From Bacteroidota bacterium (GTDB lineage Bacteria > Bacteroidota > Bacteroidia > Bacteroidales > ML635J-15): a DNA stretch of 64,000 bases. The notes beneath the pieces were generated by a model that saw only the letters and a program-made list of their open reading frames with translations, was not told the origin of the DNA and searched no databases. Positions within the stretch are counted from its first letter, which is position 1. Each line of letters starts with the position of its first letter. Below, piece after piece: positions 39,367 through 49,180 of the stretch. A program made the position numbers and the translations under genes. The DNA lies in contig JAKQPY010000096.1 of assembly GCA_029564465.1 (NCBI GenBank), positions 15,025-79,024 on the forward strand, given 5' to 3'.

Positions 39367-40209
39367 TCAATTCCCGTTTATCAGATTTCCGCTACCGCCA
39401 CCTCCTGAGTTTATGCTAGGATTTCCCCGGTAAATAACATCACCACTGCCATCAATTTCGACCAACAGGTTCTCGGTTGCCCACACTTCAGCATTTCCGC
39501 TACCATCGATAAAGACACTGGTGGTTTCGGTTTCGAGGTTGAAACCATAGAAGTCGCCCGATCCATCGATATGCAGAATATTTGAGGCTGACCAACCACT
39601 TGCAAAAACATCACCGCTTCCATTGATACGGAACGAAGAATTGGCAAGTTCAGTTTCGAGGTGCATATTGCCGCTGCCGTCGATAGTGGCACTCAGGCTT
39701 TGGCCCTTTCCTTCAAGGTTCAAATCACCGCTACCGTCGATTTCGAGTGTAATGTTATCGGCTTCGAGCCACTGGAATCCAACATTACCCGATCCGTTGA
39801 TGTCGATTTCAAGGCTGCTTATTGTGTCGAAAACTCCATTAGTAGTCAGGTCGCCACTACCGTCAATTTTAACATAATTTACCTCGTCAGTATAAATGTA
39901 AACAGTTACCGGAAGAGTGGGTCTCACATTGTAGCCGTGCATGAACTCAACAGTGCATATGCCATTGCTGACTTCGGTACTAACCAGATTGATGATATTT
40001 TCCTGTGCTTCAACAAGAATTTTAGCTGAGTCGCTTTTAACAAGTACTACATCAATCATGTCGTTAATCTCAACTCCGTTAATTCCACGACTGTCTCTTT
40101 CAATACTGGTAAGTTGCCCAACGCCCCTTACGTAATCGTGCGGGAAATAGCACGACGATAACCCTCCAAGCAGTGCAGCAATGGCTGCAATTAATGCGAA
40201 TCGTTTCAT
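39367..40209 (-). CDS. GIN-domain (DUF2807, adhesin-head-like) lipoprotein
   Basis: Lipobox LGGLSSC. Repeated (I/V)DGSGD / INGSGN beta-helix turns are typical of DUF2807. Confidence 0.65.
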   Translation of the reverse strand: MKRFALIAAIAALLGGLSSCYFPHDYVRGVGQLTSIERDSRGINGVEINDMIDVVLVKSDSAKILVEAQENIINLVSTEVSNGICTVEFMHGYNVRPTLPVTVYIYTDEVNYVKIDGSGDLTTNGVFDTISSLEIDINGSGNVGFQWLEADNITLEIDGSGDLNLEGKGQSLSATIDGSGNMHLETELANSSFRINGSGDVFASGWSASNILHIDGSGDFYGFNLETETTSVFIDGSGNAEVWATENLLVEIDGSGDVIYRGNPSINSGGGGSGNLINGN

Positions 40210-40227
40210 ATTTATAATTATTTTATA

Positions 40228-40896
40228 TTAGAATTTACCAATTTTAAGACTTACACCTGCATTAAAACCGTTCATCAGATTGTTGTTCCCGATAATCTGT
40301 CCGGCACCACCGGAATACTCAAGATAAATATTCGAAGTATAGCGATAACTGGCATGCACTGCAAGTCTGAAGAAGCGTGTCATATTGAATTGCAGCTCAA
40401 GTCCCGGCTGAACGTAAAAATATGCATAATAGCTTTCGGGATAATAATCGTAGTTTTCGGCAAAATAGTAGTAATTGCCCATATAGCCTACGCCTCCTGC
40501 GCCAATGCTGACAGGTACCGAAAGGTTGATGGCTTTCTGGGGAAATATATTGGCTGCAAACAGTAAACCACCATAAGCACCCGAATACAGGTAATACGAG
40601 TTGTTTAAACTGGCATCGGGACGGGGTTCCGAAACAAAAGCATTAACATCAAGACCGACCTCAAACATGTGGTCAACAACCCAGGCTGTCCGGATGCCCC
40701 CGATGAAGGCATTACGGCCTGCTATCTGAGTGTAGTACAGGTTCGCCCCTAAATAAGCACCATGCGAGGTAATACCATCAGAATCAAAAAGGGTTTGAAT
40801 TTCGGAACCCTGTCGACTGTGCTTTAATGAGTCATTTTGTGAAAAGGCTGTCCCGACAAGGGTTGCCATACAGATTACAAGAAATAGTTTTTTCAT
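40228..40896 (-). CDS. small outer-membrane beta-barrel protein (hypothetical)
   Basis: Signal peptide, Tyr/Gly-rich alternating strands, and a C-terminal ...GVSLKIGKF ending in Phe. Confidence 0.5.
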   Translation of the reverse strand: MKKLFLVICMATLVGTAFSQNDSLKHSRQGSEIQTLFDSDGITSHGAYLGANLYYTQIAGRNAFIGGIRTAWVVDHMFEVGLDVNAFVSEPRPDASLNNSYYLYSGAYGGLLFAANIFPQKAINLSVPVSIGAGGVGYMGNYYYFAENYDYYPESYYAYFYVQPGLELQFNMTRFFRLAVHASYRYTSNIYLEYSGGAGQIIGNNNLMNGFNAGVSLKIGKF

Positions 40897-40967
40897 ACGT
40901 TTTTATTTTTTTACAATCTTATGACAGATACATCTCATTATACCCCTATTCATTAAAAAAAAAAATC

Positions 40968-42932
40968 TTAAAATCTTACCCCAATAGTGAAACCCTGCCA
41001 AATACTATATTGTGTTGGTTTACCTTCGGAAGTGTAATATGCGTAATCAGGTTTCATGTCCGTTAAAAATTCGTTGGTGTATGGATTTTTCCACCTGCTG
41101 GCCGAAAGATTCAACGATGTTCCGGCAAAGAGTATAAAGCTATTTGCCAGATTTAATCCGATTTGTGGCTTCAACGATAACCATAAATTGAGGTCTTTAA
41201 CAAAACTATTGTGCTCAAACACGTGGCTGCAGGTTAAGTCGCAGTTCAGCATCCATTTTTTTCCCATTGAGGTGGATGTTCCCAGTCCATAGCCAATAAA
41301 TAAACGTAAATCGGACCTATCGGGGCTGATTCCGGTATTGATTATATTGTAGAATTTTGGTAATCCGCTTTTAAAACAGAACACGATATTGTTGAGATCG
41401 TTGTAGCTGAATTCAATTGAACGGTATCCGTTTTTGACAACAGTAAAAAAGCCGGCTGCAAAACCACTGTTCACTTCGGAAACATTAATAAAACCAATCT
41501 GGCCACCCCGGCATGAATCGCTTATATTAATAAGCCCAAGTTGAAGACCGTGATTTACGTTGCATCGATTATATAAAGCCGGACACTGCAGCAATTGTAA
41601 ATTGTTGGCTACATTAAAGATAAATGCGGTTTGCAATATCGGGTTCCCGTAACAATCGCGATTTCCCACAGCAGCTATTTGCAATCCATTCGATTCATCA
41701 GCGACATTATAAATTGCTGAAACCTGCAATTTCCCGTTTATTCCGTCGGCAATATTTACTACCGGCGAAATCTGCGAACCCACATAACGACCACGACTCA
41801 GCGAGCTTACTCCCGAAAATTGTAATCCGTTAAGCGAGTCTGTCGACAAGTTACTCACCAGTGAGAACTGCACACCATTCCCAATTCCTGTAAGTGTGTT
41901 ATGAATCAGTGCCAGTTGCATGCCGTTTAAATCGTTACGGCAATAGTTTGTTAAACCTGCTGCTTGTAAGCCCGTTACATGATTGAAAACCAGATTTGCC
42001 CCGGGACTGATCTGTGTACCGCTAACGCTGCCGTTTACAATATTTAGTAGTCCGCCAAACTGAAATCCGAGCATATTGCGGCGTACAATATTCAAAAGCA
42101 ACCCGATTTCAACACCCGAAACGGCTCCAACATAGCCACCGGGAATATTTAATGAAGTTGAATACTTCATGTTGCGGCTGTGCCATAAATCGCTGCCTAT
42201 AAAGGGCAGTACCGACAACTGAAACTCTTTTTTTTCAAGGTCATGATATTCAATGGTATCGCTGACAGGCCTGATTTTAAAAGCATCGGAGAACCCAACT
42301 GCAGCAACGCTGTCATGGTCGTAAGGCGTTGGCTCAAGCATTGGCACCTTTATAATCACGTCGGGTGTTCTTGTCAGTGGCTGCATTTCGAGAATAAATC
42401 CCGGAGTCGGTTTTTCAAGTTTCAGTAGGGTATCGTAATAACCATTGGCTGTAACTTCGATGTAACATGGGTATTCATTACAAATTACGGTAAAATTACC
42501 GGCGCGGTCGCTGCGCCATCTACTTCGTTGCTGGTTCGAAACGCGGGCATTGGAAATCCCGCTGCGTGTTCTCGAATTAATTACCTTACCACTCATTGAT
42601 TGCTTTTGTTGGCTTACTTTCTTCAGAATAATGTGGGTTCCCGATTCCAACATCTGAATATTGTTGCCGCATAGAGTGGTAATAATTTTCCGTATGGTTT
42701 GTTGTTCTGCGTATATACTGACAATAGAATCCTGATTAATAGCATCGTTCCCATAAGAAAAACTGAAGTTTCCGAGTCGTTCAATTTCTGTTAAGGCTTT
42801 ATGCAGGCTGATATTCCGGAATTCAACCGTGATTTTTTTATCCAGAATATGACTCTGCCCAATAACTATTTCACTCTGAGCAAGCATCAGGAGCAAAAGT
42901 ACCAAATGCAGGAACAGGGTTTTATTCGGCAT
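40968..42932 (-). CDS. STN-domain + carboxypeptidase-regulatory-like domain outer-membrane protein with 16-residue repeats (not a TonB-dependent transporter)
   Basis: Signal peptide from ATG 42932. STN-like ITVEFRNISLHKALTEIERLGNFSFSY. CarboxypepD_reg-like MSGKVINSRTRSGISNARV. About 14 repeats of xxGxQxxxxxNxxxxx. C-terminal ...GFTIGVRF. The start overlaps the FecR stop. Confidence 0.65.
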   Translation of the reverse strand: MPNKTLFLHLVLLLLMLAQSEIVIGQSHILDKKITVEFRNISLHKALTEIERLGNFSFSYGNDAINQDSIVSIYAEQQTIRKIITTLCGNNIQMLESGTHIILKKVSQQKQSMSGKVINSRTRSGISNARVSNQQRSRWRSDRAGNFTVICNEYPCYIEVTANGYYDTLLKLEKPTPGFILEMQPLTRTPDVIIKVPMLEPTPYDHDSVAAVGFSDAFKIRPVSDTIEYHDLEKKEFQLSVLPFIGSDLWHSRNMKYSTSLNIPGGYVGAVSGVEIGLLLNIVRRNMLGFQFGGLLNIVNGSVSGTQISPGANLVFNHVTGLQAAGLTNYCRNDLNGMQLALIHNTLTGIGNGVQFSLVSNLSTDSLNGLQFSGVSSLSRGRYVGSQISPVVNIADGINGKLQVSAIYNVADESNGLQIAAVGNRDCYGNPILQTAFIFNVANNLQLLQCPALYNRCNVNHGLQLGLINISDSCRGGQIGFINVSEVNSGFAAGFFTVVKNGYRSIEFSYNDLNNIVFCFKSGLPKFYNIINTGISPDRSDLRLFIGYGLGTSTSMGKKWMLNCDLTCSHVFEHNSFVKDLNLWLSLKPQIGLNLANSFILFAGTSLNLSASRWKNPYTNEFLTDMKPDYAYYTSEGKPTQYSIWQGFTIGVRF

Positions 42933-43899
42933 ATAGCATGAATTGTTGTCCCTGTTTTTCAACCCGCAGACCAAGGGTTAAAGCAATAACATTCAAGACT
43001 TTATCGGCTTGTTCGTTTGTGAATGAGGAGGTAAGTCTCATTTGCCTGATGCTACTGTCGGCTATTCCGATTTGACATCCGTACGCTTTTTCGATAGCCG
43101 AAATAACATCGGGCAGGGGAGTGTTATAAAACGAAAGTCTGTTTTCGACCCAGAACACTTCGTTTCCACTTCCTGCGGTTTTAATAATTTCGTTGCTGTC
43201 AGCCTTGCACAAGGCTTTCTCACCCTTGTGAAGGCTTACACTGTTTTCGTCTTTATTTTGTTTCACCATAACAGAACCTTCTTCTACCCATACCATTACA
43301 TCACCACCGGGTTGGTTGCTGACTAAAAATCGGGTTCCCGTTACCCGGATTTCGGTGGATGCGGTTTTTACAATAAATGGTTTTTGCTTGTCTGATGACA
43401 CCTCGAAAAAAGCCTCTCCGTTCAAACTGACTTCACGGGTATTTTGACTGCCAAAATTCGCAGCATATTTAATTTCGGAGTTTTTATTCAGTGTAATCTT
43501 ACTTCCATCACCCAGTTGTGTATGGCCAATACTATCGGTAGCGGTAAAACTCAGCCACTGGGTTTCGACCCCCGATTTTTTACCAAGCATAGTAACAATA
43601 CCCACTGATACAATTATCAGACAGGTAACGGCTGCGGCATACAACAGGAGTTTGTAAGAAAATCGTGATCTACTATTGTTTGCTGAAATCTTATGTCTCG
43701 TTTTAATAAGGGCTGCCTCAGTATCGAAGGATTCTGTCCCCGAATGAGTCTTATAAATCAAAAGAAACTGCCTGTATAAACGGGAAAATCCAACATCATT
43801 GGCCAGACGTTGTTTTACCTCTTCAACCTGTTCTGCCGTAAGTTTGTCGGCAATAAAGGCAGCCAGTAAATCGTAATCGTATGTGTTTGGTTCCTGCAT
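42922..43899 (-). CDS. FecR-family anti-sigma factor
   Basis: Cytoplasmic N-domain, a single TM helix (LLLYAAAVTCLIIVSVGIVTML), and a periplasmic FecR domain (VSLNGEAFFEV...PFIVKTASTEIRVTGTRFLV). Confidence 0.8.
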   Translation of the reverse strand: MQEPNTYDYDLLAAFIADKLTAEQVEEVKQRLANDVGFSRLYRQFLLIYKTHSGTESFDTEAALIKTRHKISANNSRSRFSYKLLLYAAAVTCLIIVSVGIVTMLGKKSGVETQWLSFTATDSIGHTQLGDGSKITLNKNSEIKYAANFGSQNTREVSLNGEAFFEVSSDKQKPFIVKTASTEIRVTGTRFLVSNQPGGDVMVWVEEGSVMVKQNKDENSVSLHKGEKALCKADSNEIIKTAGSGNEVFWVENRLSFYNTPLPDVISAIEKAYGCQIGIADSSIRQMRLTSSFTNEQADKVLNVIALTLGLRVEKQGQQFMLYAE

Positions 43900-43932
43900 T
43901 TTATACTCTGACAGCTAAATTCATAAATACCC

Positions 43933-44490
43933 CTATTTGAATACCTCAAATAAATTAATCCCCATAATTATTATAATCGGCAAATAGTCCTTCAATTCTT
44001 CCCTGAGATGTTTCAGCGCGTGGCCCATTTGGTTTTCGACTGTTTTAACCGAAATATTTAGTTTATCGGCTATTTCCTGATAGCTCAATCCCTGATTCCT
44101 GCTTAATTGAAACACCTGGCGGCGCCCTTCGCTGAGCGAGTTAATGGCGAATTGTATTCTTTCCTGCAATTCAGCAACCAAAAGTGGGTTAACATCGTGC
44201 AATTCCGATTGACTATATTGCACTTCTCCGGCATATTTCTGTTGCACTTTTCGATGTTCGAATAAATTAAACACTGCATTTCGGGTCGCTGTAAACAGGT
44301 AGGACTTTATCGAAATTGTAATGTCTGTCTGATTACGTTGTGTCCAAAATCTGGCAAACAGGTCCTGAACAATTTCTTCTGCGTCTTCGGCGGTGCAACC
44401 CAACATACATGCATACCGGCACAATCTTGCATAGTAAGCCCTGAAAAGCTGATCGAAAGCAGCTTCAGCCCCATTTTTCAATTGTTCCAT
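43933..44490 (-). CDS. ECF-type RNA polymerase sigma-70 family factor
   Basis: Region 2 (AEEIVQDLFARFW) and region 4 (LSYQEIADKLNISVKTVENQMGHALK). The ATG at 44490 is preferred over the GTG at 44511. Confidence 0.8.
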   Translation of the reverse strand: MEQLKNGAEAAFDQLFRAYYARLCRYACMLGCTAEDAEEIVQDLFARFWTQRNQTDITISIKSYLFTATRNAVFNLFEHRKVQQKYAGEVQYSQSELHDVNPLLVAELQERIQFAINSLSEGRRQVFQLSRNQGLSYQEIADKLNISVKTVENQMGHALKHLREELKDYLPIIIIMGINLFEVFK

Positions 44491-44616
44491 TAACAAACAG
44501 TCTTCCACCAAGAAGCGATTTATTGGCGTAAAATTACATTATTTACATTAAGAAATTGATTCCGTTGAAATAAGATTTTCGAAATGAATTAAACCTGCCT
44601 GATTCCGGTATGTGAA

Positions 44617-45036
44617 TTATTTGCGGGGCTCTTCATCCAAGCCGTTCAGGTGATCCTCAAGAATTTGAAACAGGGTTTCGGAGCGAAGCGGTTTGCAGAT
44701 ATAATCGTCGAAGCCCAGACGCATGTATTTCGACCGGTCGGTGGGAAGTGCGTGCGCGGTTTGAGCAATAACCGATGCATTCGATTTCATCTCCTTCAGC
44801 TTATTCAAGGTATACATGCCATCGCCGTTAGGCATCTGAATGTCAAGCATAATCAAATCAATATCCGGGTTTTTCCGGCAAATCGAAAGTACTTCGTTCC
44901 CGCTGCGGGCTTCAACAATATTAACCCCCGTAACCTGCAGCAATGCCCGGTAGTAAAACAAAACATCATCAACATCGTCGGCTACTAAAATCGTCTTGCC
45001 TTTAAATAGGTTCTTGTATTTGTTTAGTTGCATCAT
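44617..45036 (-). CDS. single-domain response regulator (REC only)
   Basis: ILVADDVDD ... LIMLDIQMPNGDG ... VIAQTAH ... CKP. No output domain. Confidence 0.8.
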   Translation of the reverse strand: MMQLNKYKNLFKGKTILVADDVDDVLFYYRALLQVTGVNIVEARSGNEVLSICRKNPDIDLIMLDIQMPNGDGMYTLNKLKEMKSNASVIAQTAHALPTDRSKYMRLGFDDYICKPLRSETLFQILEDHLNGLDEEPRK

Positions 45037-45270
45037 CCTTCACTTAACTTGAATCATTTCTAGAATAGGTAACCCGTCCTCACAAATTTAGATATTAATT
45101 CTTACTAAAAAAGTCAAGCTTTCCTTTTTGTTTCCATAAAATAATAAAATTAACAGTTCATTAAAATTACCAATTTTATGAAAAAGATGTAGTTTTTTGA
45201 AAATCATTACATTATATTCGCACATGGCTTGAACCAAAGTGAAAAAAAATTGTTTGACAAAAAACTTAGT

Positions 45271-48021
45271 ATGCCACACGATAAACTATTGTCCGGAAGT
45301 GTAAGTGCGATTTGGTTTGATGAATATTATAAGCAATTCTGCGAAGACCCGGAAAGCCTGAGCAGCGACTGGCGCAATTTTTTTGCAGGTTTCGAATATG
45401 CAACCGAAAGCACTGCAATGGATGGTGGCTCCCATTGGGTTTCCAAAGAGTTTAAAGTAGCGCATCTGATTGACGATTACCGGAAGCGCGGTCATTTGTT
45501 TACACAAACCAATCCGGTGCGTACCCCCCGAAAATTTTCTCCAACGCTTGATTTTGTAAATTACGGCCTGAGCAACGAAGACCTCGATCAGGAGTTCGAA
45601 GCGGGTATGCTCATTGGTTTGGGAAAATCCAGCCTGAGAAACATAATTCAAAAACTACAAAAGACCTATTGCAGCAACATTGGGGTTGAGTATATGTATA
45701 TCCGCAATCCCGAGGTTGTCGAGTGGCTGACCACTTATATGGAAACTGCTTCGAATACCCCTGATTTTAGTGTTAGCGTTAAGACCGATATTTATAAGGC
45801 TATCGAAAAAGCAGTTGATTTTGAACAGTTTATACATCGGCGTTTCCCTGGGCAAAAACGCTTTTCGCTCGAAGGTGCAGAAGCATTGGTACCCGGCTTG
45901 CAGTTTCTTATCGATGAGGCTGTATTGCTGGGCGTGGAAGAAATAGATTTTGGTATGGCCCATCGTGGCAGACTCAATGTGCTAACGAATATTATGCAGA
46001 AACCCTATGAAAATGTTTTCAGGGAGTTTCTTGCAAAAGAATACAGCGAAAACGATTTTCTTGGTGATGTGAAATATCACCTGGGATACCAGAGCTGCGT
46101 CACGGTACAGCAGAAGAATATCGAGCTGAACCTGCTGCCCAACCCTTCGCATCTCGAGGCGGTAGGAGGGGTTTTGCAGGGTTTTGCCCGCGGTAATGCC
46201 GACCGTAAGTTTGGCAGCGATTTCAACAAAGTATTGCCGGTGCTGATTCATGGTGATGCAGCAGTTGCTGCTCAGGGGGTGGTGTACGAAGTAATTCAGA
46301 TGTCGCAACTCGACGGTTATAAAACCGGCGGTACCATCCACTTTGTAATAAACAATCAGATTGGATTTACAACCAACTACCTCGATGCCCGATCGAGTAT
46401 TTACAGTACGGATATTGGAAAGGTTACCCGATCTCCGATTTTCCATGTAAACAGCGACGATCCGGAAGCACTGGTGTATGTGGTGCAGATGGCGGTTCGC
46501 TATCGTCAGCGGTTTCACACCGATGTTTTTATCGATGTGCTGGGGTATCGTAAATATGGACACAACGAAGGCGACGAGCCCCGTTTTACTCAGCCGGAAC
46601 TTTATGATGCCATTGCAGCACATCCCAATGTAAAGAAAATATACGCTGCTCAATTGGTTGCCGAAAATGCATTCAGTCAGGCTGATATCATTCAATCAGA
46701 AAAAGTGGTTGTCGATACCCTAGACGCCGCTTTTACATTGGCAGGAAGTCAAAACAGGGTCGATTTTTTTAAATTCAATCGTGATAACCAGCCAGTTGAC
46801 AATGCCCTGAAAGCCGATACGACGCGTATAAAAGAATTGGCACAACAGATTTTCTCCTTGCCAGCCGATGGTGGTTTTATTCCCAAAGCATATAAAATAG
46901 CCGAAGCGCGCCTGCAACGTGCAGCTGATGATAAACTCGACTGGTCGATGTGCGAAATGCTGGCTTATGCGCAGGTAGTTACTTCGGGCAGGAATGTTCG
47001 GCTCAGTGGACAAGATTCGATCAGGGGGACATTTTCGCACCGTCACTCGGCATTTTTTATAAACGATACACGAAACCAGTATTTTCCGCTTAATAGTATT
47101 ACCGGTTACAACGATGCCAGATTCAATGTGTGGAATTCGCTGCTGTCGGAATATGGTGTGCTGGGTTTCGAATATGGTTATGCCCTGGCTGACCGCAATG
47201 CATTGGTTATTTGGGAAGCCCAGTTTGGCGATTTCAACAATGTGGCGCAGGTAATTATCGACCAGTATATTTCATCTGCCGAGGCAAAATGGGGTGTGCA
47301 AAATGGTCTGGTGCTTTACCTGCCTCATGGTTACGAAGGTCAGGGTCCGGAACATTCCAGTGCCCGTATCGAACGTTTTCTTCAGTTGGCTGTTAACGGA
47401 AATATGCAGGTGGTACAACCGGTAAGCCCTGCCAACCTCTATCACATCCTACTACAACAGGCGTCAAACCCGGTGAAGCCTTTGGTGGTGTTTACTCCAA
47501 AAAGTCTGTTAAGACACCCCGCTGTTACCGCTACATTTTCGGAATTAAGCGATAACACCTTCCGAAAGCTTTTGGTTGAATATCCCACCGATCCATCACT
47601 GGTGAAACATCTTGTGTTGTGCAGTGGTAAGGTATATTACGATTTAAAGGATAAACAGAAAGAACTCAATGATACCTCACGTTGTATTGTCGCTGTCGAA
47701 ATGTTACACCCATTCCCGTTGAAGGAAATCGAAACTGTAATAAACTCTTTTGAGAATCTGGCCGAAGTGCTTTGGGTTCAGGAAGAGCCTATTAACATGG
47801 GTGCGGCCTATTATGTGGTTCGCGAAATGCGTGACCATAAAACCCGTGTTGCTGCTCGACCGGCCAGTAGTAGTCCGGCGGTAGGACTTATGGAGCAACA
47901 TTTGCGTCAACAAAAAAAGCTGATTGATAAAGCCTTTGGTTTTTGTAATTGTGTGCGACGATACGATTTTTGCGATATGCAATGTTCAAATTTTGATAAC
48001 CACGAAACGCATGAAGATTGA
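45271..48021 (+). CDS. sucA: 2-oxoglutarate dehydrogenase E1 component
   Basis: About 915 aa. Conserved blocks are [61 protein letters not shown] and [22 protein letters not shown]. The ATG at 45271 is preferred over the TTG at 45229. Confidence 0.9.
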
Positions 48022-49180
48022 AATTAAAATTCCCAGTCCCGGTGAATCTATCGAGGAGCTTGAATTGGTAGAGTGGCTGGTTGCCGACGGCAGTACTGTT
48101 GAGAAGGATCAGGAACTGGCGACTCTTGAATCGGAAAAAGCTAGCCTGATACTGGTGGCCTCCAGCACAGGAGTCATACATATTTTGCTGAAAGCACCCG
48201 CATTGGTTAAGGTTGGAAGTACAGCTTGTGTTATCGATGAGGCGAAAATTCCGGCATCAGGTTCGAACCCGGTTCAGAAATCCGTCGGAAGCGCCATAAT
48301 CTCCGAAAGCCATGTCGAAGTTTTTCAGGCCGAGTCTAAAACCAGGGTTTCTCCCGTAGCGCGCAAACTGGCTGAATTAAACGCAATCGATATTGAGAAG
48401 CTTGCACACCAGGGCGACCGAATTTCGAAAGCCGATGTGGTTAAAGCTATGCGCCGGAAATCGACTGAGAGCCGCGAAGAGAAAGTTCCCATGTCGCAGT
48501 TGCGTAAAAAACTCAGCGAAAAGCTGGTATCGGTACAGCTAAACACGGCCATGCTAACTACCTTCAACGAAGTTGATATGTTCCCCGTGCTCGAACTCCG
48601 GAAAATGTATGGCGAAAAGTTTCTGGCACAATATGGAGTGAAATTGGGACTCATGTCGTTTTTTACAAAAGCAGTTGCATTGGCTTTGAATGATTATCGC
48701 AATGTAAATGCGGCCATTAGCGGAAACGATTTGGTTTTTTATAAATACGCCGATATCGGTATTGCAGTTCAAACCAATAAAGGTCTCATGGTTCCGGTGT
48801 TGCGCGATGTTCAGGATTTGAATCTCCCCGAAATTGAACAACAAATATTTTTAATGGCCGAGAAAGCCCGAAATGCAAGAATCAGCCTTGACGATCTGAA
48901 GGGAGGAACTTTTACCATTACCAATGGAGGTGTTTTTGGCTCATTACTTTCTACACCAATTATAAACCCTCCGCAATCTGCCATACTGGGAATGCATACC
49001 ATTCAGGAAAGACCGGTAGTACGCGATGCACAGATAGTAATTCGCCCAATGATGTATGTGGCATTGTCGTACGATCACCGCATTATCGATGGCCGCGATT
49101 CGGTTGGTTTCCTGAAAACCGTAAAGAATTTAATTGAAAACCCCAAAGAACTTTTTGATTTCGGCTCTTTGGGGTCGTAG
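48011..49180 (+). CDS. sucB: dihydrolipoyllysine-residue succinyltransferase (E2 of 2-oxoglutarate dehydrogenase)
   Basis: N-terminal lipoyl domain (LESEKAS), a peripheral subunit-binding domain (VSPVARKLA), and the catalytic domain ending SYDHRIIDG. The ATG at 48011 overlaps the sucA stop by 11 nt. Confidence 0.9.

Follow-up and report, generated by a model that had tools for sequence, protein, structure and literature searches.

An ECF sigma/FecR operon of a Bacteroidota genome whose STN-type outer membrane partner is not a TonB-dependent transporter

Can cell-surface signaling run through a sensor protein that transports nothing? In the usual teaching, cell-surface signaling belongs to TonB-dependent transporters, in which the STN domain reports ligand occupancy and TonB action. 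A minus-strand operon in a 64,000-nucleotide (nt) stretch of DNA from an uncultured Bacteroidales bacterium of the Bacteroidota (assembly GCA_029564465.1, contig JAKQPY010000096.1, positions 15,025 to 79,024; hereafter the window) has the sigma/FecR/STN wiring without a transporter in the sensor protein. The gene after those for an extracytoplasmic function (ECF) sigma factor and a FecR-type anti-sigma factor encodes a 654-amino-acid (aa) protein (40968-42932, minus strand, ATG start), and this FecR partner is not a TonB-dependent transporter: neither Plug (PF07715) nor TonB_dep_Rec (PF00593) matched it in Pfam even at E ≤ 1, and a plug or TonB-dependent barrel was matched in none of 60 aligned homologues. 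Lacking both a plug and a 22-strand barrel, the partner cannot import a ligand. With moderate confidence, the operon is read here as a self-contained trans-envelope module composed of the ECF sigma factor, FecR, and a non-transporting outer membrane STN partner.

The architecture of the 654-aa protein was resolved by an AlphaFold2 (AF2) model of the full-length chain, built on the 60-sequence alignment, that had a predicted local distance difference test (pLDDT) score of 84.7 and showed five parts. The N-terminal STN-like domain (residues 33-105; 42618-42836, minus strand) had the DSSP order beta-alpha-beta-beta-alpha-beta-beta and gave Foldseek and profile matches to the N0 domain of PilQ and to DotD. 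Pfam STN matched 39 of the 60 aligned homologues (best E 1.7e-15), and the STN core positions L30, L47, F58, S59, Y60, and L84 were nearly invariant in the family. A SusC-type N-terminal extension (NTE; CarboxypepD_reg-like; residues 111-183; 42384-42602, minus strand) followed as a beta-sandwich that aligned with the SusC NTE 9hfj at a Foldseek TM-score of 0.86 (normalized to the target) and a family profile E of 1.4e-6; CarbopepD_reg_2 matched 54 of the 60 homologues, and the CarboxypepD_reg match of the query itself was sub-threshold (E 0.0055). An earlier note on this DNA, made from the sequence by a model, had read STN and carboxypeptidase-regulatory-like domains here; neither scores above the Pfam thresholds in the query, and both are supported by the homologues, the AF2 fold, and the Foldseek and profile matches. 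The only above-cut-off match of the protein was a marginal one to the NCBIfam LA_2272 repeat (25.5 bits against a cut-off of 25, residues 461-486).

Behind the NTE lies a disordered linker (residues 188-225; 42258-42371, minus strand; pLDDT below 50). It opens with the TonB-box-like stretch TPDVIIKV (residues 188-195; 42348-42371, minus strand) at the site where SusC-type proteins carry the TonB box, and the profile aligned this stretch to the TonB-box region of PDB 9gbc. A family-wide TonB box was rejected since the motif occurs in a subset only, namely 14 of the 60 family members compared to 5.3 expected from shuffling. The linker leads into a beta-solenoid (residues 233-500; 41433-42236, minus strand) of approximately 15 coils built from 16-residue G-x-Q...N repeats, with G-x-Q at residues 289, 305, 321, 337, 353, 369, 385, 416, 462, and 476. 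DSSP assigned about 15 units of E7--E4---, i.e., a 7-residue and a 4-residue strand, and the tandem 16-residue repeats of the earlier note, where about 14 were counted, are real. Of the 50 PDB matches that Foldseek listed, none resembled a solenoid, and the solenoid had no match at E ≤ 0.001.

The chain closes with an eight-strand outer membrane beta-barrel (residues 503-654; 40971-41426, minus strand) that AF2 modeled as eight long strands in 152 residues. Its strands alternate in hydrophobicity and its end, ...GFTIGVRF with a terminal Phe, had been singled out in the earlier note and is the closing segment of this amphipathic barrel. Modeled alone, the solenoid and barrel (residues 226-654) reached a pLDDT of 94.9 and a predicted template-modeling score of 0.79. 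The best Foldseek targets of the barrel were a designed 8-strand barrel, Opa60, NspA, OmpX, and Ail, which were mutually consistent and all weak at E > 0.01 (scores of 0.67 for 6x9z, 0.65 for Opa60, and 0.54 for NspA). The absence of a plug and transporter barrel, as previously proposed, was thus confirmed both by the profile scans and by the eight C-terminal strands of the model. If the C-terminus of an 8-strand barrel is periplasmic, the N-terminus is on the same side since the strand number is even. On this basis, the solenoid, linker, NTE, and STN would all be periplasmic in the predicted model, and the outward-facing parts are only loops of about 4, 2, 8, and 20-27 residues.

The 654-aa protein belongs to a large family. 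At least 292 homologues of about 550-690 aa were found, those with a named source were all from Bacteroidota, with Dinghuibacter silviterrae, Longitalea arenae, and Limibacter armeniacum among the sources, and some carry the annotation [quoted passage not shown] The NCBI name is based on domains only, and literature searches found no published description of the STN-rod family. A profile of the solenoid and barrel, searched against a library of 1.84 billion proteins, matched 4,066 clusters (50% identity) at E ≤ 1e-30, and matches at E ≤ 1e-25 were present in 96 of 401 sampled genomes of the phylum. The full STN-to-barrel protein was identified in at least 16 of these 401 genomes besides the source genome. 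Many others, especially in one family with 3-4-Mb genomes, had the solenoid-barrel module only, in proteins of 400-530 aa. Weak matches confined to the N-terminus were SusC-like open reading frames (ORFs) of 1,100-1,250 aa, which shows the origin of the STN-NTE front end. The stand-alone solenoid-barrel family is present in almost all sampled genomes of one Bacteroidota family; one such gene (locus L055, 6001-7488) lies by PagL and peptidyl-prolyl isomerase genes with no sigma or FecR gene nearby.

The sigma factor of the operon (43933-44490, minus strand; 185 aa from ATG or 192 aa from TTG at 44511) carries Sigma70_r2 and Sigma70_r4_2 in Pfam and matched NCBIfam TIGR02985 at 171 bits (cut-off 126.4), identifying it as a Bacteroidota-type ECF sigma. 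The 325-aa anti-sigma factor (42922-43899, minus strand) contains above-cut-off FecR (PF04773, E 1.3e-19, 70.8 bits, residues 119-210) and FecR_C (PF16344, E 2.6e-12, 47 bits, residues 254-319) domains, the latter being the STN-binding domain of FecR-type anti-sigma factors, laid out with a cytoplasmic N-terminus, a single hydrophobic segment, and periplasmic FecR and FecR_C. The start of the 654-aa gene and the FecR stop overlap by 11 nt, and a gap of 71 nt separates the STN gene from that of a 222-aa protein (40228-40896, minus strand), which is followed by a gene for a 280-aa DUF2807 lipoprotein (39367-40209, minus strand); coordinates and strand of all five ORFs were correct as first listed. 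In the source genome (3.48 Mb in 289 contigs, estimated to be 100% complete), the FecR of the operon was the sole FecR-domain match. A genome scan with Pfam STN gave no scoring region anywhere and the STN part of the family profile found no second match, such that this FecR has no conventional transducer as a partner.

Conservation of this arrangement was surveyed in 20 other loci carrying the STN protein. FecR was upstream of the STN gene in all 20 and directly adjacent in 19 (gap of ≤67 nt or overlap), the exception being L040 in which a DUF2807 gene lies between the two, and the sigma gene preceded FecR in all 18 loci where a sigma could be called. Genes downstream of the module varied among the loci and always coded for envelope proteins. 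These included an STN-less solenoid-barrel paralogue in nine loci, an OMP_b-brl_2 protein in one, and a ~780-aa TonB-dependent receptor without STN (NTE, TonB box DAIVVTA, plug, and barrel) in seven (L003, 7939-10323; L056, 7436-9775; L045; L049; L051; L054; and L040), while a DUF2807 gene accompanied the module in eight of the 20 loci (six downstream and two upstream).

A shared promoter-like motif predicts that the regulators and their cargo form one regulon. The motif TAGGGGTA-N14-TTGTC[ACT]T was recognized by eye in the regions preceding the sigma genes of related loci, and the core pattern GGGGTA-N14-TGTCNT was searched with the reversed sequence as control. In 331 kb of related loci, the core gave 18 exact matches compared to none in the control and, with one mismatch, 40 compared to 10. 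Bases outside the search pattern were also conserved, with the letters of ATA before GGGG present in 26, 32, and 28 of 32 sites. Coding-strand sites stood just before the sigma gene in at least 12 loci and before FecR in two. In 13 of the 20 loci a site followed the STN stop codon at a distance of 9-125 nt, and further sites preceded several receptor genes; several of the genes for the ~780-aa receptors have a TAGGGGTA-N14-TGTC motif of their own. In the window, two matches were found with one mismatch allowed compared to 0.69 expected, both in the operon and on the minus strand. Candidate promoter P1 (GGGGTATTTATGAATTTAGCTGTCAG, 43908-43933) spans the sigma stop codon and ends 8 nt before the FecR start. 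Candidate promoter P2 ((ATA)GGGGTATAATGAGATGTATCTGTCAT, 40921-40946), the only exact core match in the window, ends about 24-25 nt short of the ATG with which the 222-aa gene starts. Motif sites are found at the same two positions in the close relative L057. Alignment of the sigma upstream region with the relative L058 showed no clear motif before the sigma gene in the source clade, where the motif stands before FecR instead. A scan for sigma-70-type promoters and terminators was uninformative.

Across the whole 3.48-Mb genome, the core pattern had three exact matches, one of them P2, compared to none in the control. The second site (G000:C254:34661-34686) lies 35 nt upstream of a gene for a secreted protein of 1,138 aa that carries three LTD domains and a Big_5 domain (L062, G000:C254, 4211-7627, minus strand), a possible extra regulon member, and the third is antisense inside a penicillin-binding-protein gene. 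With two mismatches, 27 genome-wide matches compared to 33 in the control, and the regulon could not be extended in this way. No transporter was found in the predicted regulon of the source genome.

The 222-aa cargo protein of the window has a signal peptide, a C-terminal ...SLKIGKF, and no Pfam or NCBIfam match; from its signal peptide and terminal Phe only, it is probably a secreted small outer membrane barrel. Its family is small (21 clusters) and every context read was this operon type, including a relative at 74% identity in the same six-gene block with different flanking genes. Profile comparison related it neither to the solenoid-barrel family nor to the OMP_b-brl_2 protein that takes its position in L044, and both relationships were rejected. 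The 280-aa protein carries PF10988 (DUF2807/GIN; E 2.7e-40, 138.5 bits, cut-off 24.2) and the lipobox LGGLSSC. The earlier note had taken the two as co-expressed components of the pathway, and their co-regulation gained support from the predicted motif before the 222-aa gene.

A working scheme for the module can be proposed from these data. The 8-strand barrel would anchor the STN partner in the outer membrane, with a rigid solenoid of ~15 coils, roughly 70 Å long at 4.8 Å per coil, hanging from it into the periplasm and carrying beyond it the flexible linker of ~38 residues, the SusC-type NTE, and the STN. The signaling domain of FoxA binds FoxR's C-terminal domain without signal and protects FoxR from proteolysis (PMC11637429). 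By analogy, the STN is inferred to make the same protective contact here, binding the FecR C-terminal domain and shielding FecR from proteolysis. A change in the outer membrane or periplasm would break this contact, candidate triggers being a changed distance between the membranes, an anchor that is lost or misassembled, or a partner that binds the rod. FecR would then be degraded and the sigma released to transcribe FecR-STN from P1, resetting the switch, and the 222-aa outer membrane protein and DUF2807 lipoprotein from P2. The output would consist of outer membrane and periplasmic proteins and no transporter. Envelope state may reasonably be proposed as the sensed input, and envelope state or a periplasmic or outer membrane partner is a likelier signal than surface contact. 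A more specific version, advanced tentatively and held to be doubtful, describes a transport-independent envelope gauge in which the fixed-length rod holds the STN on FecR, the sigma reports inter-membrane distance or outer membrane integrity, and coil number sets the switching point. The gauge would be a two-protein Dma counterpart assembled from the parts of a nutrient transducer.

Several other explanations were weighed against the self-contained module. That the 654-aa protein is what truncation or a frameshift has left of a SusC-like transducer, an alternative that the earlier note itself had raised, draws on the homology of its first ~190 residues to the front end of such transducers. 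A remnant does not fit one uninterrupted frame that has a conserved C-terminal module of its own and the end signal of an outer membrane protein, nor hundreds of homologues with the same full-length architecture at 24-55% identity; with 4,066 clusters and full-length copies in at least 16 other genomes, a broken transducer is ruled out with near certainty. Domain scans and family survey together support the proposal that the sensor is neither a TonB-dependent transporter nor a broken one. Surface-contact sensing, also suggested in the earlier note, fared worse since the predicted barrel topology would make rod and STN periplasmic. A sensor of surface contact or an adhesin, with the solenoid displayed outside as an autotransporter passenger, would suit the NCBIfam wording of the LA_2272 repeat as a "surface repeat" and the Pfam "adhesin head GIN domain" of the neighboring gene. 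However, the STN must reach periplasmic FecR yet lies N-terminal to the solenoid, the even strand number puts both termini in the periplasm, and the 8-strand barrel has no pore for a passenger, which makes an exposed solenoid very improbable.

The protein could also be regulated cargo only, i.e., a structural outer membrane protein with a degenerate, non-signaling STN, while FecR senses something else. The sub-threshold STN of the query and the STN-less solenoid-barrel paralogues that stand alone in many genomes, such as the one by PagL, speak for this explanation. It is nevertheless improbable given that in 19 of 20 loci the gene immediately follows FecR and often overlaps it, that it lies upstream of the cargo promoter rather than downstream, that the STN core is nearly invariant, and that FecR lacks any other STN partner in the genome. 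The strongest competing explanation is a split transducer in which the STN-rod is the detached signaling arm of a separate STN-less TonB-dependent receptor, encoded elsewhere in the source genome, and relays its ligand or TonB state to FecR. Favoring this are the ~780-aa receptors directly downstream in seven of the 20 loci, often with their own motif copy, the homology of the family N-terminus to SusC-type transducers, and the excess of TonB-box-like motifs after the NTE. Conversely, no receptor gene is present in the operon of the window or in 13 of the 20 loci, none of the three exact genome motif sites precedes a receptor, and looser matching did no better than the control; a split transducer is judged rather unlikely.

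The self-contained module is still preferred, and a number of points weigh against it. PF07660 did not match the STN domain of the 654-aa protein itself, and with a sub-threshold query STN the contact with FecR is deduced from gene order and from the fold and family of the protein. The assignment of the rod to the periplasm depends on counting strands in a predicted model, P1 and P2 are motif predictions, and the TonB-box-like motif in a subset that includes the query hints at a residual link to TonB. In the family as a whole, a transporter may still be what the module reports on, as the STN-less receptor in seven of 20 loci ties it to transport in some cases.

A 139-aa response regulator with a REC domain only (44617-45036, minus strand; PF00072, E 5.3e-23) is encoded 105 nt upstream of the sigma gene and holds the same place in the relatives L057 and L058, where the six-gene order of response regulator, sigma, FecR, STN protein, outer membrane protein, and DUF2807 lipoprotein recurs with different outer flanking genes. 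It may provide a second input to the module. The divergent neighbors (45229-49180, plus strand) were ordinary 2-oxoglutarate dehydrogenase E1-like (930 aa) and E2-like (418 aa) ORFs, as judged from translations read by eye.

The STN-rod/FecR design is a widespread variant of cell-surface signaling. As a large family of thousands of 50%-identity clusters on which no paper was found, it would separate signaling from transport and would allow a test of what the STN/FecR contact needs for switching. The conserved motif offers a handle for reporter constructs and for predicting the regulons of further carriers. Beside Dma, Bacteroidota may have in this module a second way to couple gene expression to outer membrane state.

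Compared to TonB-dependent transducer signaling, such as FecA-FecR-FecI, FoxA-FoxR-FoxI, and the SusC-type systems of Bacteroidota, the module shares the ECF sigma and a FecR with FecR_C, an outer membrane partner with an N-terminal STN-like domain followed by a SusC-type NTE, and one type of promoter-like motif before regulators and cargo. It differs in that the partner has no plug or 22-strand barrel, in that this partner is translationally coupled to FecR rather than being a regulated target, and in a cargo that, in the window, consists of a small outer membrane protein and a DUF2807 lipoprotein. The LA_2272 repeat proteins (NCBIfam NF047436/NF047435) have the 16-residue G-x-Q...N repeat of the solenoid, and the stand-alone Bacteroidota solenoid-barrel proteins share both this repeat and the C-terminal barrel; both groups lack the STN/NTE front end and a FecR neighbor (e.g., L055). 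The nearest functional analogue is the Dma anti-sigma factors, which are restricted to Bacteroidota and combine an anti-sigma domain, transmembrane helix, disordered tether, and barrel in one polypeptide acting on an ECF21 sigma (PMC10927553). In both systems, a link that spans the periplasm ties an ECF sigma and its control to a small barrel of eight strands that does not transport. In contrast to Dma, which has no FecR or STN, the link in the present module is divided between two proteins, FecR and the STN-rod-barrel protein, that would be joined by the STN/FecR_C contact, and its tether includes a rigid solenoid.

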